From NCBI GenBank assembly GCA_039028635.1, contig JBCCHV010000005.1, positions 12,118 to 76,117 on the forward strand: DNA of 64,000 bases, given 5' to 3'. Under the pieces are notes generated by a model. That model did no database searches, was not told the origin of the DNA, and worked only from the letters and a program-made list of their open reading frames with translations. Positions 3,744 to 14,724 of this stretch are shown in pieces. A program made the position numbers and the translations under genes. Each line of letters begins with the position of its first letter. The stretch's first letter is position 1. The DNA is from Acidobacteriota bacterium. Its GTDB lineage: Bacteria; Acidobacteriota; Thermoanaerobaculia; Multivoradales; JBCCEF01.

Positions 3744-6034
3744 CTACGACCCCTGCTCCGAAGGACTGGTTTCTCGCTCGGGGACAACAAGCTCCACCTC
3801 TCCTCCAGCGGGGAGGGTATCGCTAACGCAGGTCGGTTGCTCCTGGCGCCAATCCCTCCGGGTCGTCGCCGCAGCAAGGTAGTCCGCCTCGGTCATGACG
3901 CATGCGGTGTAAAGCCCTGGTGCCATCCTGGGAATTTCGAGGCTCTTGCTACCAAGCTGCCACGTCACACCATGGCCCCGAGACCATTGCCATAGCCTCT
4001 GCTGAGACAGTGGGATGCCATCCTGGAGAATCACGACCTGGCCTCGCTCGCGGCTCGAGGAGGAGTCAACCTCTCCTTCGAAGCGGATGAAGAGACGTCC
4101 CCATTCTGCGGAGACCTCGAACGTCAGGTCTTCGGAAAAGGGAACGCTCCTGGCCTGAAGGCCGTGCCCGGGCGCACTGACGATCGCGTGGAGTTGTTGG
4201 GCATCGGCTCGCAGGCGAGCGTCGAAGTAGCCGGATAGATCTGTCCTGGCCGAGTCTCCAGACGCGGCGAGGAATGGTTGGACCACTTCGAGATCAACAG
4301 AGGCTCCCGGCACGGGACTACCCTTCTCGGAAACCACGCGGCCACGAATTGCCTGCTTGCTGTGCAGCACGAGCTCCGCCGGCCCCCAGGGAGTCCCCTC
4401 GACGACCGAGGCCATCACGCTGTCACTCGACCTCTCGTCATCGCCAGCGCCCTTCCGGGCGGCCACCGAAACCGCCCCCTCGCGAAACGCCCGGAGCCGG
4501 AACTCACCATCCTCCTCGGAGCGCCCTGAGGCCCTCGCGTCCGAACCCCGCAAGAACACCTGCGCTTCCGCCACAGGGCGTCCTTGTTCATCGACCACCC
4601 GACCGAAGACCTCCGTCTCCGGAAGCACAATGTCGAGATCCGCCTCGCCCTTCGAATCTGCGCGAACCTCGACCCGGTCGCGCAGCCCCTCCAACTCCAA
4701 CTCCGGAACGTCGACCTCGATATCCCACCATCCATCCTCTGGAAGTACCCCGATGAAAGCCCCGTCTCGGTCTGTCGGCGTGTGGGCGCGAGAGATCCCG
4801 GACCGACCACCAAACCAGATCGTGCCTTCCACGGGCTCTTCGCCATAGAGCAACTCCCCGCGGACTATCACGAGATCGAGAGTGACCGCGATACGAGGGT
4901 CGGCAGCGGTCACCATGACATCGGGTCGCCCAAACATCTGGTTCCCCAGGGAGTCCTGCACCTTGACGAGGAATGTTCCTGGCGCTTGGTTCTCGAGCAC
5001 CGTGCGCCCTTGAGCCAAGGCTCCACGAAACGCGGAGTCTCCGTCGGCTGAGCCAGAGAGGTCCGACATGCGAGAGACAGAAACCTGCCACGGCTTGCCG
5101 CGCCAGTCCTCCGGGGGTTCGACCAGGACCTCGATTTCGAGAGGGCGGTAGAGAGTGATGGGCGCCTTCAGACGTACTTCGGCCGAGTCCCAAACTTCCA
5201 GCGGAAACTCTCTCGCCTCCACGAATCCTGGATGAGCAACCTCCAGAACGTAGGCTCCGGAAGCGAGTCCTGCAAGCTGGAAGAATCCATCCCCCTGCAA
5301 GGGCACCTCGAGCACCGGCTTCGCCAGCCGTTGCGCCAACCCAGTATCGGCTCCACGAGGAACGAAGGGGAAGAGCCTAGCGGAACCTTCCGAGGTTAGA
5401 AGTTCGCCGTCAATCGACTCGGCTCGACCAACCAGAGATCCCCCTTCTTTCAAGTCGAAGGGGGCAAAATGCACCACCGAGGCTGGCTTGACCTCGACCC
5501 CGAACTCATACATCGGGACGTAGCCCGCAACCCGAAACTCGGCATCTAGCAATCCCGCGGGCACGTCACAGGACCACTTATCCTCCTCCACGGGGCAGCG
5601 CGCTCGAGAGGTAGGAACCGCACCCGATCGCAGGGGCTCCGGCGAGGAGAAGCGGATTTCGAGACTGCTCGGTAGTTTGCCCTTGCCGTCGAGCAGTTTC
5701 AGCGTGCCCGAGAGTCGCCCCGCCGGCCGAGTGAGAAAGTGGAGCTGCGTGTCTCCCGAGGCCTCGAAGGACTGCCTGCGACTTCGAGACAGGCCTCCCA
5801 TGAGGTTTCCGCCGGAAGCACCAAGGAGGCCAACCCCAAGTCATCGAACGCGACCTCGCGAGTCTCAGGTTCCTCGCCAAGAAGCCGAAGCTGCACCAAT
5901 CCGAGGGCCTCGGCCTCACCCTCAACACGCTCACCTGACAGAGAGACGTGAACGTCCGAGGCTTCCATGGACGGCACCGCCAGCCCCAGGAGCAGAAACG
6001 GGGCAGCCAGGCCGACAGCGAGCGATCTCGTCAT
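3744..6034 (-). CDS. Large secreted protein with repeated carboxypeptidase-regulatory-like beta-sandwich domains; the N-terminal signal-peptide segment is in another frame (frameshift or pseudogene?)
   Basis: 685-aa ORF 3744-5801 with repeated GxVVDxxGxPVxxAxV motifs (FGRVVDEQGRPVAEAQVFL, IRGRVVSEKGSPVPGASVDL). ORF 5699-6043 in a different frame encodes MTRSLAVGLAAPFLLLGLAVPSMEA, a signal peptide. The ATG at 6034 overlaps the upstream gene's stop codon (ATGA). Confidence 0.5.
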
Positions 6035-6384
6035 CCTGGGCAATACCCGTTGCAGTCTGGCTCCTCCGTCTCTTCGACCTCGACGAGGAGGCAGGCACCG
6101 CCGCTGGTTACACAGAGGACGCCATGCATGTCACGAATGTTCTCGCAGTAGATCCCGTCGCCCGTTCCGTAATTCGAAGCGGACTGGCACTTGGTGTCAC
6201 AGGGGCCGAACCAACCGGAGCAGTTTGAGTTGTCTGGAACGCAGTTGAAACAGCCAACCATCCTGGCTCCATGTGCCGCCCAAACGCCACCGAAACCTAG
6301 CAGAACAGTGAGAACCAGAATGGCTCTCCGGCACGAAAATCGGTCCGTTAGTCGAGCGTCGCCCTGGCCCGCGCCACCATACAT
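6031..6384 (-). CDS. Possible small secreted Cys-rich protein (117 aa, about 10 Cys after a signal-like segment), in frame with the orphan Rhs fragment
   Basis: MYGGAGQGDARLTDRFSCRRAILVLTVLLGFGGVWAAHGA/RMVGCFNCVPDNSNCSGWFGPCDTKCQ...DCNGYCPG. Its stop overlaps the ATG of the downstream large secreted protein (ATGA). Confidence 0.3.
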   Translation of the reverse strand: MYGGAGQGDARLTDRFSCRRAILVLTVLLGFGGVWAAHGARMVGCFNCVPDNSNCSGWFGPCDTKCQSASNYGTGDGIYCENIRDMHGVLCVTSGGACLLVEVEETEEPDCNGYCPG

Positions 6385-6906
6385 GTCCCGCTCGTGGCCG
6401 GTGAGCCTCATCCGCTCGCTCGACCCGTTGGGCACGGACTCTTCCCCAAACGGGAAGTAGGTATGAAGCCCCGCACTGCGCCCGTCGGCCTTGGTGATGA
6501 GCCTCGGGGTGCCGAGATGGTCGAGGTGGAAGAACCTCCATCCCTCGGCCGGCCTCCAGGAAGCCAGCAGCTGACCGTCCCGATGGATGTGGTCTTCCCG
6601 GTGGTTCCAGGTGCCGGCGGAGCCTCCGACGGTACCCCATGTGCGCAGCACCTAGCCGCCGAGGTCGCGCAGGGTCCAGGTCTCTTCGATCGGGCTTTCG
6701 GCCCAGTGGAGGGTGTTGATGCGCTCGTCGTCGGCGGTGTAGAGGTAGTAGTCCTCGATGGCGCCGTCGCCGCTCTCCTTGGACCTCAGCTTCGACAAGG
6801 CGTCCCAGGTGTAGGTGTAGCCGGTGGTGCCGGAGCCGAAGTGGAGCTGATTGCCAGCGGCGTCGCAGCCGGCCCCGGTCCAGCGATTGGCGGCCTCCCT
6901 GACCAC
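6031..6906 (-). pseudogene. Orphan Rhs C-terminal core fragment, disrupted by an in-frame TAG and lacking the DPxGL/toxin end
   Basis: NRWTGAGCDAAGNQL..YLYTADDERI..PIEETWTLRDLGG*VLRTWGTVGG..ASWRP..LDHLGTPRL..FPFGE..TGHERD aligns with residues of the full Rhs (TNRLTGAGYDAAGNQL...TWTVRDLDGQVLRTW...). TAG at 6652-6654 sits where the full gene has CAG. The sequence diverges after GHERD. Confidence 0.7.
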
Positions 6907-7010
6907 CGGTCCAATCCTTGACAGCCTTCAGGAACCGCCACCATAAGAGCCCCGCAAGAGCTTTTCCTTCCAATAGTCCTGGAGAAGAGCGAAACTCAAG
7001 AGCGGTTCGA

Positions 7011-7397
7011 CTAGTCGTCCCACTGGAAAACGGTCTCAGTTCCCGCCTCGAACGGAAGATCATCATCAGGATGGAGAAGCCAGCAAACTTGGTAGAGGGT
7101 TGGCCAATCTCGAAGACGTCTCCAAGTGAAATCGACCCTTTCAACCTGTCGATCGAGTGGACCGGTCCAAAGGCGAAATCCTTCGACATACATCTCTCCA
7201 ATCACCACCGCATTCTCCTCCAAAAGAGAACCCAGCAGATCGAGAACGGCTCCCCTAATATCTTCCTGAGACTCAGAATACCCCAGCTCTTGACGCACCG
7301 ATTCGACCAGATCCCAAAAGCCGAATTCGCGTTCCTCGTCGACTTCACTTGTAACTGCCACAAAAATTCGCTTCTTTTGACTCTTTGAGAGTAGCAT
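7011..7397 (-). CDS. Rhs-associated immunity-like protein 2, paralogue of the 7548-7964 gene
   Basis: 128 aa in a local AT-rich patch. Shares GFRLW.G....VERVDFTWRRLRDWP with imm1 (GFRVWPG...VERIRFAWRLLEDWP). Confidence 0.55.
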   Translation of the reverse strand: MLLSKSQKKRIFVAVTSEVDEEREFGFWDLVESVRQELGYSESQEDIRGAVLDLLGSLLEENAVVIGEMYVEGFRLWTGPLDRQVERVDFTWRRLRDWPTLYQVCWLLHPDDDLPFEAGTETVFQWDD

Positions 7398-7424
7398 CGG
7401 CTATTGGCGGAGGGGTTGGAGTAG
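7395..7424 (+). repeat. 30-bp repeat copy B (catcggctattggcggaggggttggagtag)
   Basis: Matches 3642-3671 at 28 of 30 positions. Overlaps the start codon of imm2 on the opposite strand. Confidence 0.7.
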
Positions 7425-7547
7425 CGATCCAGAGCGATCAACCCAACATAGCTACGCAAAAATAAGCCGATGCAATCACAAAGAGGACAGCCGCGAACAT
7501 TAGGTGTGGCCTATCACCTCAATATCGGCACGGCACCCATAGAGGAC

Positions 7548-7964
7548 TCATGGCGGAAGACGACCAGCGTCTCCGTCCCGAGAATAGCTAGCCGGCAGTA
7601 GGTCACTCTCGGTCTCCATCGGAATGTCGTCACCGGCGGGAAAGAAGCAGCAGACATCATCGATCGATGGCCAATCTTCAAGAAGTCTCCACGCGAACCG
7701 AATTCGTTCCACGTGAATATTGAAGTCTCCAGGCCAGACCCGAAAACCACTCTCATAGAGATTTCCGACCTGCATCTTCTTGGATGCCAAGAGCTCTCGT
7801 AAAACTCTCAGAGTCGCCTCCTGTATCGATGCTTTCGACTCGCGGCGACCCAGAAGATCCCTAATATCCTCTACCAGAACGTAGAACTGCATCTCTCTGG
7901 CCTCTTCCAGAAAAATCATCCACTCGGACTCAAGAACTTCAGACTGCTCTACTGTAAGTCGCAC
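7548..7964 (-). CDS. Rhs-associated immunity-like protein 1, the likely cognate of the Rhs C-terminal toxin
   Basis: 138-aa ORF starting 11 nt after the Rhs stop. Low-GC composition. No signal peptide. Confidence 0.6.
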   Translation of the reverse strand: MRLTVEQSEVLESEWMIFLEEAREMQFYVLVEDIRDLLGRRESKASIQEATLRVLRELLASKKMQVGNLYESGFRVWPGDFNIHVERIRFAWRLLEDWPSIDDVCCFFPAGDDIPMETESDLLPASYSRDGDAGRLPP

Positions 7965-7974
7965 CGTGCTACTC

Positions 7975-10900
7975 CTAATTTTCCAGGAACTTTATCTTTC
8001 TGACTTTCAAGCCTGGAAGGTCCAAGTTGATTGTGGAATGACCTGATGCAGACCTGGACTTAGCTCGATAGCTGACAGTTGCGCCCGGAGCCAGCTTCAC
8101 CGTAACTCGCCCTGGCCCCCGAGAGACGACAGAGCCACCTCTCGACAGTCGCCCGAACAACTTCTGTGCAGCCTTCTCACCACCCGGCAAAAATCTAATC
8201 TTCTTACTGGATCCGGCCACCCCAATGAGCCGCCCTGCCGGCCTTACGATCGCGGTAGCCCTGGAGATCGTTGCCTGCTCCGCCAAAGTAAACCCTGTAA
8301 CGAGCGCGCCAGCAGCCACCGCCGAGGGAGCCTCCACGGCAGCATCTCTAAAGAGCTGCAGCCTCTCGGACGGTAAGGCGCTGGAGTCGATGCCCTCGGC
8401 CTCGAGCTCTGCTGCCATGGAGCCGGGATCCGGTTGATCCGCTTCGTCCTCCGGATTTTCGTCGCCCTCGAGGTACTCGCCAAGGGCTGCCTGAAAGAAC
8501 AAGGCAATCTCATCGACTGCACGCTGGAAGGCATTTCGCCCCTGCTTCGAAGCCGGCAGCAGGCCATCGGGATCAACCCACTTGAGGGGGTTATTGAGAG
8601 CGTAGGTGTAGCGATTCAGGGACTGGGGGTTCTTGAGGCTCCCTCCCACGGGGTCGACACTGAGAAACCTGCCGTTGAGGGGTGAGCAGTACCTGGCGTG
8701 CATGTAGTCAAGGTCGTCATCTTGGCCAGGTGTTCCGTGATGATCGCGTTCGTGGCCGGTGAATTTGAGCCTCTCCTCGAGGTGGACGGTGCCGAGCTCT
8801 TCTCCGAAGGGAAAGAAGACCGAGAGACGCGGAATCTGTCCATTGGCATTGACCGAGAGCCGTGGCGTTCCGAGGTGGTCGAGAAGCTGGAGGCGGACTC
8901 CCTCCTGCGGCCGCCACGAGGCCAGCAGACTGCCTTCACGGTAAATGTAGTCCTCGTGGTGGGTCCAGGCCCCGCTGGAGCCGCCGACGTTGGTCCATGT
9001 GCGGAGTACCTGCCCATCGAGGTCGCGCACGGTCCAGGTTTCCTCGATCGGCTGAACGGCATTGCGGAAGGTACAGATGCGCTCGTCATCGGCGGTGTAC
9101 AGGTAGAGATCGTCCTGAGTGCCGTTGTTGCGGCGAGCGCGCTTCATCTTGGAGAGAGAGTCCCACTCGTAAGCGAAGCCCTGAGTGCCGACACCCCAGT
9201 TGAGCTGATTGCCCGCCGCGTCGTAGCCGGCCCCGGTCAAGCGATTGGTGACCTCACTGGCCACCGGGGTCCGAGTCGAGGTCGAGCCGCCCGAGGTGGT
9301 GGTGATCGATCCGAGATTGCCGAAACGGTCGTAACCGTAAGTCTGCCGATCGCCTCCCCCGAGCACCCCTTCCACCAAACGACTGACCGAGTCGTAGCGA
9401 TAGCGCTCGTCACCGAGGGCCTTGACATTGCCGGCACCGTCATACTGATAACTCAGCCCATCGGCGGAAGCTCCAGGTGCGAGCGCAAGCCCGGGATCGG
9501 CCAGACCGTTGAAACGTACGCCCACCGACCGCGGTCGCCGCATCCCCCAGGGATCGCGGGCCTGAAAATAGGTGATGCCGCCGCTATGGGCCACTTCCTG
9601 AAGCATGCCGTTGTCATGATACGAAACCGTCGCCTGCACGCCCGGGTAGCCGCCGACAGCGGTCAGGCTCCCCTGGACGTAGGTGGAGGTGGCGGCACGC
9701 ACGGAGTCGGAGCCGGCGCAGGGGAAAAAGGTGCAGCGGGGAAAGGTCACCTGACGCAAGTTGCCGAGATCGTCCCAGGTCCACCCTTGAGTGAAGGACT
9801 GCAGCGAAGACAGGGCCGTGCGCCGAGAGCTGACCCGCCCGCCGAGCCCACCATAGGCGTAGGTCTCGGTCACCGAGACGTCGATCTCGGGACCATTCGG
9901 GTTCCAGGGAGGCACGAACCAGTTGTGACGGGTGGCCGTCTTGGTCTTGCCCTTCGAACGGTCTAGCGAGTTGGTGCCGATTCCATAGGTGAATGTCTTG
10001 AGGAATCGCCGTAGTCCGGCGCTCTCTCGAATCGACAGCAGACGCTCGGCGCGGTCGAAGTCGAACTCGAGATCGAAGGCACCGGCCGCCGCCCCCACCC
10101 ACTGCCGGTGGGCATGGCCGCGCGCATCGTACTCCCGGTAGAAAAGCGTGCCGTTGCCGGAAAAGCCCAGCTCGGGATGGGTTTCCGAAAGGAGAAATCC
10201 TCGACCGTCATACTGAAAGCGGCGCACCTGGTGACCACCGGTGCGGGGCGTCCGCGCTTCGATCAGGCGATCGGCGGCATCGTAGAAGTAGCTCGTCGTG
10301 ACCTCCGCCCCAGCGTTCCCGGAGGGCTCTTCCACCGCCGTCAAACGCCCATACCGGTCGTAGGTCTCGGTGGTGGTCGAAGGCGTCTCGGCGCCATTCG
10401 TCCCGGTGGCTACCTCGACCGTACGGGCCAAGGTTCGGATGCCCTGATAGGTGAACCGAATCGGATTGCCGTCCGGCAAGGTGAGGGTCCGCGGCCTGCC
10501 GAAGGGGTCATAGCCGGAGTACACGGTTCGAGGATAGGACGATCCGTGGTCACTGGTTCGGCGGGAGGACTGGGACCGCTTCCAACCGTTCGGGTAGTAG
10601 GCCGTCTCGACCTCGCTCCAAACACCATCGGGCAGAAGCTCGCGGTCCTGCCAGACGCGTCCCCAGGGATCGAAAAAGGTATGGCGCTGGGCCAGGGTGG
10701 CACCGCTCGTCTGCCCATTGGGCCGATGGATCACCTTCACCTGGCCAGCCCGGCTCGGCAGGGATCGCAGATAGTCGATCTCGATCCAGGCTCCCTGACC
10801 CGCCGTCGGCTGAATCGCCGTCAGCCGACCGAGAGCGTCATAGGAGTAGTCGGTTCGGACGCCTGCCGGATCCTTGGAATGCCGCACCAATCCGGTGGAG

Positions 10901-13002
10901 GCATCGATTCCCTGATCCAGCGTGAAGAAGTGCTCCGCCCCTGTCAGCGCACTGCCATTGCCCTTCCGATACTCGCTGCGTGAGCGCTGCCCGTGTTGAT
11001 ATTGATGCTTGATCCAGTAGACCGCTGCGGCCGGCACGCCGAGGCCACACACCGGATTGAAGACTCCCACCGATTGCAGATCGCCGCCGTAGAAGCGCTC
11101 CGCCGTCACCTTGCCGAAACTGTCTTTGTTGCGCACCACCACCACATCGTCAGTGCCACGAGTCGTTCCTGCGAGTTGGCGAGAGCGACGCAAGAAGCCC
11201 GTGCCGGCATCGAAGCAGTATTCGGCCTTGACCTCGGAAGCACCCTGCCTCACCGAGGTGTCCGTGAAGGTACCCAAAACCCAAGGGGAAGTGGTCGGCC
11301 AAGGGCTATAGCTGTGGCCTGGTAGGGGGTTGTTGCTGAAGGCGTCGTAGCTGTAAGTGCCGCGGCTCGGGTTGTAGGCCGAGGTCACCGTACGGGCCGG
11401 CCCCAGGGAGGACGAACCACCGGTGGTCACCACCCGGTAGTGGCCGAGGCCATCGAAATCGGAGGACGCGACGTCGGTGGTGCGATTGCCATCGGCCTCG
11501 TAGACCGTGCGTTGCCTTTCGAGACGGCGGTTGGAGTCGTACCAATCGCTGGTGTAGCGCACGTTGCCGAAGGGTTTGAGCTTGTCGCGGCCGTAGTTCA
11601 CGTAAATCGAGCGCCGCAGAGTGCCGCTACCGGCCCGGCCATCCCAGATCTCTTGCGACAGGAACCGGCCACCGTGAGACCTACCTCGCCGGTAGGGCAG
11701 GCCATACTCCCAGGCAGTCGGATCATTCGGAAACATAGGCTTCTCGGTGAAGTGGTGCACCGTGTCGTCTCCGGCCGGCGAGGTCACCGTGATCTGACGC
11801 CCGAAGTCGCCGTTGAGCTGGTTGCGGCTCTGGCGATAGGTCCAGGTGCAATCCTGAGTGCCGAGGTCGAAATCGAAACACTGTCCGTTGCTGTCGAGAA
11901 CCCGCTTGGTCTCGACCGCCAAGGTTTCTTGGTCGGCCAGACTTTCCGGCACGTGTGGGGCTCTCGAGAGCAAGGTGAAGTTCTGATAGGTCCACTCGAT
12001 CAGACCACGAGTCGGGGCCCGCAACTGCCGGATCGCCCCCGGCAAAGAAGCGATGGTCGTCCCGAGCTGATTGCAGGAGCTGTAATAACTCGGCATCTCC
12101 CAGGAGGAGCCGTCCGGGAGATCGATGCGGGTCAACAGGTCGACCATCGCGTTCGGCCCCGTCGGGTCGCTGTGACCGTCGGGATAGGGAATCTGATCGT
12201 CCTCGCAATGGCGCTCGATGGCCGTCTCCTGATAATGGAAGTTGTAAATCGCCCGAGAGCCACCAAAGGCCTGCAAGTTGACCGACTTCACCCGCCATTG
12301 CTGGGTCATCGGCGAACGCTCGAAGTCGACCGTATGCTCCCGGCCCAGCCGATCTTCCAGCTCCCAGTCTGAGCCTGCCAGGTCGACCTTCACCCAGTTG
12401 CCTTGGCGATCTTCCATCCGCGTCAGCCGCCAGCGGCCGTTGGCCTCGTGCTCGAAAGTTCGGATCGTGCCATCGGGAAACTCGACCCGACGGGTCACCC
12501 CTTGGGCACTCAGCCGAAGGTAGGAGTTGTCGCGGCTGTAGAGAAAACCGGTGCCGATAGTCTCCCCGACGTGAAGCGACTGGTAGAAAGCGCTCTCCGA
12601 GCCGTCCGCTCCGACAAAGCGCCAGGGGCCCGGGGCATAGGTGTAGTTGGGCGACAGCAAGGCCCCACCGAGCGACAGGGTCCAGCCCAGACCGGCATTG
12701 CTTTGCCGATTCGGATAGACCTCTGTCAATTCAAAGTCGCCGATTCGGCGGGTCTCCAGATCCCACACCTTGGCGTTGTAGGACAGCGTCAGGCCATAGG
12801 AGAAGCCGCCCGCCACCGGCGTTTCTGAGCCGATCGGCAAGGCCAGAATCAAGTTGCCGTTGAACAACGCCACGGAGTCGATGCCGGAGTAGTCGTAGAC
12901 CTTCTCCGCCGAAAAGCCTCGAGCCTCGATCGGATCCTGCTGGGCAAAGGCCAGCAGCGGGACCCACAATACGGCGAGGAGAACCAGCCACCGAAGCTTC
13001 AT
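7975..13002 (-). CDS. Rhs/YD-repeat polymorphic toxin with N-terminal Sec signal peptide (WapA-like) and a variable C-terminal toxin module
   Basis: 1675 aa. Signal peptide MKLRWLVLLAVLWVPLLAFAQQ. Many YD repeats (YDALGRLTAI, YDRYGRLTAV, YDAADRLIEA). Rhs core end ...PxxxxDPDGL (WVDPDGLLPAS) at about 8552-8596. About 190 aa of C-terminal domain in lower-GC DNA. Confidence 0.9.
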   Translation of the reverse strand: MKLRWLVLLAVLWVPLLAFAQQDPIEARGFSAEKVYDYSGIDSVALFNGNLILALPIGSETPVAGGFSYGLTLSYNAKVWDLETRRIGDFELTEVYPNRQSNAGLGWTLSLGGALLSPNYTYAPGPWRFVGADGSESAFYQSLHVGETIGTGFLYSRDNSYLRLSAQGVTRRVEFPDGTIRTFEHEANGRWRLTRMEDRQGNWVKVDLAGSDWELEDRLGREHTVDFERSPMTQQWRVKSVNLQAFGGSRAIYNFHYQETAIERHCEDDQIPYPDGHSDPTGPNAMVDLLTRIDLPDGSSWEMPSYYSSCNQLGTTIASLPGAIRQLRAPTRGLIEWTYQNFTLLSRAPHVPESLADQETLAVETKRVLDSNGQCFDFDLGTQDCTWTYRQSRNQLNGDFGRQITVTSPAGDDTVHHFTEKPMFPNDPTAWEYGLPYRRGRSHGGRFLSQEIWDGRAGSGTLRRSIYVNYGRDKLKPFGNVRYTSDWYDSNRRLERQRTVYEADGNRTTDVASSDFDGLGHYRVVTTGGSSSLGPARTVTSAYNPSRGTYSYDAFSNNPLPGHSYSPWPTTSPWVLGTFTDTSVRQGASEVKAEYCFDAGTGFLRRSRQLAGTTRGTDDVVVVRNKDSFGKVTAERFYGGDLQSVGVFNPVCGLGVPAAAVYWIKHQYQHGQRSRSEYRKGNGSALTGAEHFFTLDQGIDASTGLVRHSKDPAGVRTDYSYDALGRLTAIQPTAGQGAWIEIDYLRSLPSRAGQVKVIHRPNGQTSGATLAQRHTFFDPWGRVWQDRELLPDGVWSEVETAYYPNGWKRSQSSRRTSDHGSSYPRTVYSGYDPFGRPRTLTLPDGNPIRFTYQGIRTLARTVEVATGTNGAETPSTTTETYDRYGRLTAVEEPSGNAGAEVTTSYFYDAADRLIEARTPRTGGHQVRRFQYDGRGFLLSETHPELGFSGNGTLFYREYDARGHAHRQWVGAAAGAFDLEFDFDRAERLLSIRESAGLRRFLKTFTYGIGTNSLDRSKGKTKTATRHNWFVPPWNPNGPEIDVSVTETYAYGGLGGRVSSRRTALSSLQSFTQGWTWDDLGNLRQVTFPRCTFFPCAGSDSVRAATSTYVQGSLTAVGGYPGVQATVSYHDNGMLQEVAHSGGITYFQARDPWGMRRPRSVGVRFNGLADPGLALAPGASADGLSYQYDGAGNVKALGDERYRYDSVSRLVEGVLGGGDRQTYGYDRFGNLGSITTTSGGSTSTRTPVASEVTNRLTGAGYDAAGNQLNWGVGTQGFAYEWDSLSKMKRARRNNGTQDDLYLYTADDERICTFRNAVQPIEETWTVRDLDGQVLRTWTNVGGSSGAWTHHEDYIYREGSLLASWRPQEGVRLQLLDHLGTPRLSVNANGQIPRLSVFFPFGEELGTVHLEERLKFTGHERDHHGTPGQDDDLDYMHARYCSPLNGRFLSVDPVGGSLKNPQSLNRYTYALNNPLKWVDPDGLLPASKQGRNAFQRAVDEIALFFQAALGEYLEGDENPEDEADQPDPGSMAAELEAEGIDSSALPSERLQLFRDAAVEAPSAVAAGALVTGFTLAEQATISRATAIVRPAGRLIGVAGSSKKIRFLPGGEKAAQKLFGRLSRGGSVVSRGPGRVTVKLAPGATVSYRAKSRSASGHSTINLDLPGLKVRKIKFLEN

Positions 13003-13646
13003 CGCTCACCTCCCGCCGCCACCGTCTGAGGCACGGTCGTCGCCGTGATCGCGAGCGACTCCGAGTCGACCACGAACACGACGTCACCGCCTGCGAATCC
13101 GAGGCCGCGCTCCTGCGCACCGAGGAGACGATGCAGGCGCGAGGGCTCGATCTGGACCCGAGCGTTGGCCTTGCCATCGCCGTCCGCCGACCCGCCGTCA
13201 CCGACCGTCCCCACCGAAACCCGCGCCTTGTCCCCGGGGCGAATCCACATCACCTCCAGCGTGCGGCGAGCGAGCACCAGCTCCGAGCCATCGCCGGCAA
13301 ACGCCGACAACGGAACCGTCAAGGGGTCCAGATCCGGCAACTCTCGAATCACCCACGCACCCGACGAGAGATCCGCCGAAGCCCAGACCGAAAGTTCCGG
13401 AAGGTCCTCCACGCTATCCAGCGAGACTTCGCCGTCCTGGTCATCGTCCCGCAGCGTCAATGACCAGCTCTCGAGTCGAGGACGGTAACCCTGCCGAGAC
13501 CGGCCCACCCCCAGCAGTGCCACCTCGCCACCAGGAGACACACCTGAAATCGAAACCGTCCGGTCGCTTACATCAACCTCCAAACCTGCTAGCGATCCGC
13601 CTACCGACAAAAATCCCAACACCGCCAACATCAACGCTCGATGCAT
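12999..13646 (-). CDS. Secreted hypothetical protein, immediately upstream of and overlapping the Rhs gene
   Basis: Signal peptide MHRALMLAVLGFLSVGGSLAG. GGGAGG RBS. Its stop overlaps the Rhs start (4-nt overlap). Confidence 0.55.
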   Translation of the reverse strand: MHRALMLAVLGFLSVGGSLAGLEVDVSDRTVSISGVSPGGEVALLGVGRSRQGYRPRLESWSLTLRDDDQDGEVSLDSVEDLPELSVWASADLSSGAWVIRELPDLDPLTVPLSAFAGDGSELVLARRTLEVMWIRPGDKARVSVGTVGDGGSADGDGKANARVQIEPSRLHRLLGAQERGLGFAGGDVVFVVDSESLAITATTVPQTVAAGGER

Positions 13647-13702
13647 CACGTCCAACCTCCCAAGAAATGCCCTCGTCCTTCCAGGACAACGTAAAACTGG
13701 AT

Positions 13703-14200
13703 TCAGTTCCTTGCCAAAGCGCTACAGCAAGCCACGTGCCATGGGGGACTTCGCCGTTTTACAGGCGTTTTCGGCGATCGGGCCCGAAAAAGATGTCCGG
13801 AAGATGTCCGGACGGACGTCTTCCGGACGTCCTTTTCTGCCTTTCCGGAGCTGAATTCGAGGTCGGCGAGGGTCTCGAGGCAGGTGGCCAAGCGGTCGAG
13901 GGAGTCGGCCGCCTGGAGGGCGTAGGTCGCCCGGGTGATGTCGCAGGCATCGGCCGGCCGGAGCTGGCGCAGCGTCGCCTCCAGACGGCGCAAGTCTCGG
14001 GCGACGGCCGCGATGGTCGAGGTCGTCGAGCGGTCGGCACCCTCGGGCACCACTCCCTTGGGCACCGGCCGCCCATCGACGACAACCTGCTGGAGTCGCT
14101 GACTGAGCCAGCGCTCGGATCGCTCCTCGTCCTTCTCCAGCGAGGTCAACGCGGCTTCGCGGAGGACCGATGCTCGCCGCGCCTCGTCGTCCCGATTCAT
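13703..14200 (-). CDS. Hypothetical protein (gene B of a two-gene operon), charged, probably coiled-coil
   Basis: MNRDDEARRASVLREAALTSLEKDEERSERW.... Its ATG overlaps the TGA of gene A (ATGA). Confidence 0.45.
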   Translation of the reverse strand: MNRDDEARRASVLREAALTSLEKDEERSERWLSQRLQQVVVDGRPVPKGVVPEGADRSTTSTIAAVARDLRRLEATLRQLRPADACDITRATYALQAADSLDRLATCLETLADLEFSSGKAEKDVRKTSVRTSSGHLFRARSPKTPVKRRSPPWHVACCSALARN

Positions 14201-14724
14201 GAAGCGTTGGCCTGCTTCGGGTGATCCGGGCACTGCTCCGAAAGGCGACGAGCGAGGACGAGGTCGACCTCGGTGATGGCACCGGAGGCCGGCGTGGTGA
14301 GGATCACCCAGGCGGTGTTGAGCACCACCGCCAGGGCCGGCAAGGCACCGGCCGCTTGAATGATCCCGCTGACGAAGGCCGCGAAGCTCAGCGCCGCGGC
14401 AGAGCTCTGGAGCACGAAGGGACGCACCAGACAGCGGTTGTCCTGGGACAGCCGCCAGCCCTCGTAGTCGCTTCGGCGGTCGTAGAGCTTCACGCTGCTG
14501 AGACGAGGCAGCGCGACGGACAGCTCCGGAGCCGCCGTGTCGCCAGTGCCGAGGAGCGCCTCCCGCCCGCGAGTCAAGGTGCTCTGAATGCGCTCGGGCT
14601 TGAGATGACCCGGCAAATCTCCCGGCACCGGGAACGCCGACAAACCGCTTTCCCACAGGAGTTGGTAGTAGGCCACTGGATCCAGCTCGTCCGGCTGCGA
14701 AACGGTGGTTGGAGAAGAGCTCAT
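14197..14724 (-). CDS. Hypothetical membrane-associated protein (gene A), with a C-terminal hydrophobic hairpin
   Basis: MSSSPTTVSQPDELDP...AALSFAAFVSGIIQAAGALPALAVVLNTAWVILTT.... GGGAGG RBS 5 nt before the ATG. Confidence 0.5.
   Translation of the reverse strand: MSSSPTTVSQPDELDPVAYYQLLWESGLSAFPVPGDLPGHLKPERIQSTLTRGREALLGTGDTAAPELSVALPRLSSVKLYDRRSDYEGWRLSQDNRCLVRPFVLQSSAAALSFAAFVSGIIQAAGALPALAVVLNTAWVILTTPASGAITEVDLVLARRLSEQCPDHPKQANAS

Follow-up and report, generated by a model that had tools for sequence, protein, structure and literature searches.

We analysed a 64,000-nucleotide (nt) stretch of DNA from an Acidobacteriota bacterium (assembly GCA_039028635.1, contig JBCCHV010000005.1, positions 12,118 to 76,117 of the forward strand), hereafter the window, in which a minus-strand reading frame, translated over 6031-6945, runs from sequence resembling the core of an Rhs protein into a hydrophobic segment and a cysteine-rich (Cys-rich) tail. 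The continuity of this frame does not reflect a common origin: here the dead remnant of an Rhs core and an operon that has nothing to do with it come together within about 15 nt. With a probability of roughly 0.78, in our estimate, the cause was a deletion that joined the decayed fragment of an orphan Rhs to the operon beside it, the shared frame being coincidental. Coordinates of the features are collected in Table 1.

The Rhs-derived part is a diverged and interrupted core fragment

A BLASTP comparison with the internal stop masked aligned the upstream part of the frame to the full-length Rhs protein encoded by the neighbouring rhs gene over 184 residues without a gap (108 identities, 59%; E=1e-69). 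An earlier model-generated interpretation of the letters, here called the sequence-only reading, had described such a residue-by-residue alignment to the region upstream of the DPxGL motif, and the comparison bears it out. At the DNA level, remnant and rhs form a direct repeat whose offset is fixed at 2358 nt from 6386 to 6909, with 72% identity in the gapped BLASTN alignment and 66% ungapped identity over 552 nt. The TAG that the sequence-only reading saw in place of a glutamine codon is likewise present, facing CAG in the aligned codon of the full-length gene. TAG is an ordinary stop in this DNA: it closes 15 of the 31 long open reading frames (ORFs) in the window, rhs among them, and reassignment of the codon was ruled out on this count. 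A GTG directly follows the TAG (6649-6654), and a mechanical ORF listing consequently returns a 206-amino-acid (aa) ORF at 6031-6651 that is prone to misannotation as an RHS-repeat protein.

Codon-position identities between the remnant and rhs were 57% at third, 69% at first and 73% at second positions, and the ratio of nonsynonymous to synonymous substitution rates (dN/dS) was 0.42. This ratio, together with the greater divergence of third positions, indicates that most of the divergence arose while the sequence was still coding, under purifying selection. The nearest relative of the remnant was the neighbouring rhs; an alignment-based metagenome scan recovered Rhs relatives at 28-43% identity (L007-L019), and another metagenome scan, made with the repaired fragment, returned nothing. 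The pattern of divergence marks the remnant as an old or foreign allele and not a fresh duplicate of the neighbouring rhs.

The remnant ends about 52 residues short of the position of DPDGL and is missing the greater part of the Rhs_assc_core domain. No DPxGL was found in any frame after 6358, and neither of the other two frames after that position carries a frameshifted continuation of the Rhs core (YxxARYxxPxxGRF...DPxGL), except for a possible match of about 9 nt reading LD-stop. TIGR03696 was not matched by the repaired fragment (NCBIfam, E<=1), and the Pfam RHS model scored below threshold on it, at 21.4 bits vs a cut-off of 27.9. The remnant has no toxin domain, and the genes 3' of it are the Cys-rich gene and its CarboxypepD_reg partner, not an immunity gene; both putative immunity paralogues lie upstream. 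Judged from these features, it is a bare piece of Rhs core, and a dead one.

On the other side of the remnant, weak in-frame similarity to Rhs residues 1206-1245 (VGRLVE...GGGS-stop) was seen in 6910-7023 of the minus strand, a segment that includes a TGA at 6928-6930. The similarity is too faint for a firm call; were it real, the start of the remnant would coincide with the stop codon of imm2.

The Cys-rich tail belongs to a stand-alone secreted family

Past the remnant, both the hydrophobic segment and the Cys-rich tail described by the sequence-only reading are found, with a slight correction to its figures of 78 residues and about 10 cysteines: the tail comprises 77 residues with exactly 10 cysteines and closes at the TGA at 6031-6033, in the same frame as the remnant. 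That reading had also called for a homology search of the 117-aa Cys-rich portion by itself. Pfam, NCBIfam and a word-indexed search covering 5.8 billion proteins gave no match to it. Only with HMMER, run exhaustively against 1.84 billion representatives, did 11 small proteins emerge (54-124 aa, E=3e-10 to 7e-4). A profile search added five further members, giving a family of 16 (P0002-P0017). The top HMMER match, P0001 (4634 aa, 16 stretches), was discarded as an artefact, being made of low-complexity repeats without cysteine.

The 16 members all stand alone, at lengths of 54-124 aa, and each complete one has its own Met and its own signal peptide. They share the pattern GCxxC ... C ... GDGIxC ... 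C ... GGxC ... E-V, with an end that often reads EPDCxxYCP. The window sequence retains all invariant and nearly invariant columns of the family (GCxxC ... GDGIxC ... GGxC ... EPDCxxYCP), and the family profile, which includes the window sequence as a row, matched the window ORF at E=5e-33. An AF2 (AlphaFold2) model built from the 17-sequence alignment was confident and mainly beta-strand, with a mean predicted local distance difference test (pLDDT) score of 82.8 and values of about 90 over most of the mature domain; a Foldseek search of the model against the PDB gave no match below E=3.

The Cys-rich gene and its CarboxypepD_reg partner form a conserved two-gene module

In six other metagenomic lineages (L001-3, L004-5, L006, L020-21, L022 and L023-24), the family gene sits immediately next to a gene whose product, of 750-780 aa, has a signal peptide and several CarboxypepD_reg domains, at spacings from a 4-nt overlap to a 2-nt gap, with the gene order reversed in L004-5 and L023-24. 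The same arrangement occurs in the window, where the partner ATG (6032-6034) overlaps the Cys-rich TGA as ATGA (6031-6034). The window partner is 33-37% identical to the partners of the homologues (L001-L006, L020, L022-L024), with E values of 1e-21 to 1e-115. Flanking genes vary among the six lineages and include PNT transhydrogenase, SecA, sigma-70/helix-turn-helix (HTH), phosphodiesterase and major facilitator superfamily (MFS) transporter genes; Rhs was found near the pair in none of the six lineages' loci. The pair is a conserved, unnamed two-gene module, in which translation of a secreted protein of about 100-118 aa with 8-10 cysteines is coupled to that of a secreted protein of about 760 aa with multiple CarboxypepD_reg domains, and it is present in at least seven lineages. 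Because the tail belongs to its own family, with its own partner, in Rhs-free loci, it is a separate gene in its own operon and not an Rhs C-terminal module. As a working guess, the small disulfide-rich secreted protein may bind its translationally coupled multi-beta-sandwich partner.

In the window, the partner gene is divided between two overlapping ORFs in different frames, 5699-6043 and 3744-5801. The first holds the signal peptide and the first domain (5699-6034) and the second the remainder, and the shift falls near 5765-5790. Homologous partners are single ORFs of 752-778 aa, and the repaired window protein aligns to them across the frame change; the split reflects either a genuine pseudogene or an assembly error of 1 nt. 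Among the homologues, the L001 partner was called as 518 aa (6003-7559), vs 765 aa on the near-identical L002 (5296-7593) and L003, a discrepancy that suggests a frameshift or an assembly difference.

The junction lies within five codons and lacks a start signal of its own

The sequence-only reading had the Rhs similarity break off right after GHERD, which is too early: similarity continues for eight more residues, to GQGD (codon 6358-6360), and, with a 2-nt indel in the alignment, perhaps for another 9 nt or so. From the other direction, the initiator Met of family members aligns to codon 14 of the window sequence (GAC, 6343-6345) or within three columns of it. The Met falls exactly at this codon for P0006 (an internal Met), P0010 and P0013, and up to three columns to either side for the others. 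Since the family start codon position lies only five codons past the end of the Rhs homology, the junction can be placed within 6343-6357.

No ATG, GTG or TTG occurs between 6381 and the h-region of the window Cys-rich gene, and no Shine-Dalgarno sequence precedes any of its usable starts. The family homologues have GGAGA, AGGAGG or AAGGAG as Shine-Dalgarno sequences ahead of their starts. The start codon and Shine-Dalgarno sequence that the Cys-rich gene would once have had were, by this comparison, apparently lost at the junction. Neither a sigma-70-like promoter nor an intrinsic terminator was predicted in 5600-8100.

Table 1. Features of the Rhs/Cys-rich region, in window coordinates
Feature	Coordinates	Strand	Basis or remark
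Partner gene: signal peptide, then several CarboxypepD_reg domains	3744..6034	minus	PF13620, E=2.3e-25
Mature 10-cysteine domain and TGA stop	6031..6264	minus	HMMER E=3e-10 to 7e-4; family alignments; AF2 pLDDT about 90
Signal-peptide-like segment RRAILVLTVLLGFGGVWAAHGA	6265..6330	minus	Aligns to N-terminal hydrophobic segments of all complete family members; modelled as helix
Junction zone, codons ARLTD	6343..6357	minus	Between end of Rhs homology and start of Cys-rich family homology
Sole canonical in-frame start retaining the signal peptide, ATG	6382..6384	minus	Inside Rhs-derived sequence; no clear Shine-Dalgarno sequence
Rhs core remnant	6358..6909	minus	Corresponds to residues 1246-1429 of full-length Rhs
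In-frame nonsense codon TAG, CAG (Gln) in full-length gene	6652..6654	minus	Aligns to Q of RDLDGQVLRTW
imm2, paralogue of imm1, 128 aa, TAG stop	7011..7397	minus	40% identity over 103 aa to imm1, E=8e-27
imm1, putative immunity gene, 138 aa	7548..7964	minus	Directly downstream of rhs; AGGAG Shine-Dalgarno sequence; G+C content about 0.50
Full-length Rhs/YD-repeat gene (rhs), 1675 aa	7975..13002	minus	Translation

Proposed origin of the arrangement and alternative explanations

The sequence-only reading had proposed that a decayed orphan toxin cassette was joined to the gene of a small secreted Cys-rich protein. The decayed Rhs piece holds, and the tail is indeed a secreted protein, now seen as a stand-alone family with a conserved partner; the cassette does not hold, there being no toxin domain, DPxGL or immunity gene. 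The events that would account for the present arrangement are as follows. C-terminal displacement, a recombination process, would have left the remnant downstream of the active rhs-imm1-imm2 cluster. The remnant grew apart in sequence from the neighbouring rhs at a time when it still coded for protein, and it is now dead, having the TAG and lacking DPxGL, toxin domain and immunity gene. A later deletion would have taken out the rest of the orphan (distal core, toxin and immunity genes) together with the intergenic region and the signals from which translation of the Cys-rich gene began, namely its start codon and ribosome-binding site. The ends would have rejoined within about 15 nt, and their common frame would be a one-in-three accident and not the sign of a fusion protein. 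We lean mildly towards the further view that the loss of its expression signals has left the operon decaying in its turn; the frameshift in the partner gene points that way.

Several observations weigh against this reconstruction. Neither a genome nor a metagenome contig of a close relative turned up, so that the ancestral arrangement and the deletion are reconstructed and not seen; scans of genome contigs for the Cys-rich tail and for the 685-aa partner returned neither relatives nor an orthologous locus. The Cys-rich ORF is fully intact and the ATG at 6382-6384 is available to it, and expression may therefore persist. No terminator-like site separates the rhs-imm operon from the Cys-rich gene, which makes read-through transcription possible. 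Finally, the assembly sequence is the sole source for the TAG, the frameshift and the junction.

Some of these points are shared by an explanation in which the chimera is a live gene. Here the Cys-rich protein would be made from the ATG at 6382-6384, with 13 Rhs-derived codons serving as its start and as the n-region of its signal peptide, and with expression by read-through from rhs-imm1-imm2; the Rhs relic would in effect have been co-opted. The intact ORF with every invariant residue kept, the acceptability of MYGGAGQGDARLTDRFSCRR as a net-positive n-region, the preserved ATGA coupling to the partner gene and the lack of a terminator-like site in 5600-8100 all speak for it. We nevertheless regard it as unlikely: the ATG is not preceded by a Shine-Dalgarno-like sequence, which rhs, imm1 and the homologues all have; the frameshifted partner argues that selection on the module has ceased; and chance alone can leave 104 codons intact for a long time. 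If true, co-option would tie an uncharacterised secreted two-protein module, one protein with 10 cysteines and the other with multiple CarboxypepD_reg domains, to a toxin locus. It is highly improbable that the picture stems from sequencing or assembly, with the TAG and the partner frameshift as base-call errors or the junction at 6343-6357 as a chimeric join. The two lesions do lie less than 900 nt apart, the window has no match in public collections and may thus derive from a metagenome-assembled genome, and the partner call of L001 is shortened relative to near-identical L002 and L003. However, the 5028-nt rhs ORF and many window ORFs of 1.5-2.5 kb are intact, which points to a low error rate, and a C-to-T substitution is atypical as a consensus error. 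Restoring CAG would still leave the fragment without its 5' part, DPxGL and a toxin domain. In addition, identity between the remnant and the neighbouring rhs is no higher than 66-72%, so that the two share no long exact repeat that could cause a mis-join.

The sequence-only reading had itself named another possibility, that of a novel C-terminal module, in which the hydrophobic segment and the Cys-rich domain are a new Rhs cargo once delivered by an Rhs shell. The only observation in its favour is that the frame stays open across the boundary between the Rhs-like and Cys-rich parts; it is contradicted by the findings below, and we give it almost no credence. No DPxGL or Rhs_assc_core end lies ahead of the Cys-rich part; no family member is fused to Rhs, since the true HMMER matches from the 1.84 billion representatives are all 54-124 aa long and all 16 members stand alone; and a search of the 13 Rhs-related loci (L007-L019) with the family profile gave no match. 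The family is paired consistently with a CarboxypepD_reg gene and never with Rhs, and its homology in the window starts at or beside the members' start codon.

The rhs locus and the surrounding window

Along the minus strand the order is rhs (7975-13002), imm1, imm2 and then the Rhs fragment (6358-6909). The rhs ORF, 5028 nt long, is intact, ends in TAG and is preceded by a Shine-Dalgarno sequence. Its product begins with a Sec-type signal peptide, MKLRWLVLLAVLWVPLLAFAQQ, with no PAAR domain there. TIGR03696 (Rhs_assc_core) matched residues 1398-1481 of the full-length protein at 60.8 bits vs a cut-off of 32.5, the match ending in PLKWVDPDGL; the region of about 195 aa after DPDGL had no family match in Pfam, searched with the last 341 aa, or in NCBIfam. 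Neither imm1 nor imm2 matched Pfam or NCBIfam, and the two are taken as putative tandem immunity genes from their position only. The stretch that holds them is GC-poor, at about 0.50 vs about 0.63 elsewhere.

Upstream of rhs, a 218-aa ORF at 12999-13655 overlaps the rhs ATG by 4 nt; neither this ORF nor the one at 13703-14656 matched Pfam. The entire 64-kb window contains no transfer RNA (tRNA) gene, and no Rfam family reaches its gathering score there. Those window ORFs that were queried had no exact protein match on record and no close relative in species-representative genomes, which suggests that the lineage is poorly sampled.

Relation to known systems and significance

The C-terminal displacement model of Rhs reportedly goes back to Jackson et al. 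in 2009 (BMC Genomics 10:584, listed among the references of PMC3150448). As in orphan rhs-CT/rhsI modules, in which CT denotes the C-terminal region, a 3' piece of Rhs core lies here downstream of a full-length rhs and its putative immunity genes, on the same strand, and like displaced Rhs cores it shows more divergence than one would expect of a recent duplicate. Classical orphans have DPxGL, a CT toxin domain and a cognate immunity gene, whereas the window piece has none of the three. The main Rhs of this locus also differs in context, carrying a Sec signal peptide and not a PAAR or VgrG association. Orphan rhs modules that retain core sequence with an in-frame stop are known, for example the orphan of Yersinia pseudotuberculosis IP32953 (Poole et al. 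2011, PMC3150448), and the window piece resembles that orphan in having its stop within the retained core.

On the other side of the junction, the window gene agrees with the unnamed Cys-rich family (L001-L006, L020-L024) in its signal peptide, in the GCxxC...GDGIxC...GGxC pattern, in its length and in a partner of about 760 aa whose start overlaps its stop. It departs from that family in having no start codon or Shine-Dalgarno sequence of its own, an in-frame Rhs remnant upstream and a frameshifted partner.

The relic itself is ordinary, as decayed Rhs cores downstream of an active rhs are expected by-products of C-terminal displacement. The apparent Rhs/Cys-rich fusion is an annotation trap, in which a 206-aa "RHS repeat protein" ORF is really the relic plus another gene. 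The lesson is that continuity of frame over a rearrangement junction should not be taken as domain fusion. A modest by-product of the analysis is the Cys-rich/CarboxypepD_reg module, which is without a model in Pfam or NCBIfam, is without a fold match in the PDB and could merit definition as a family.

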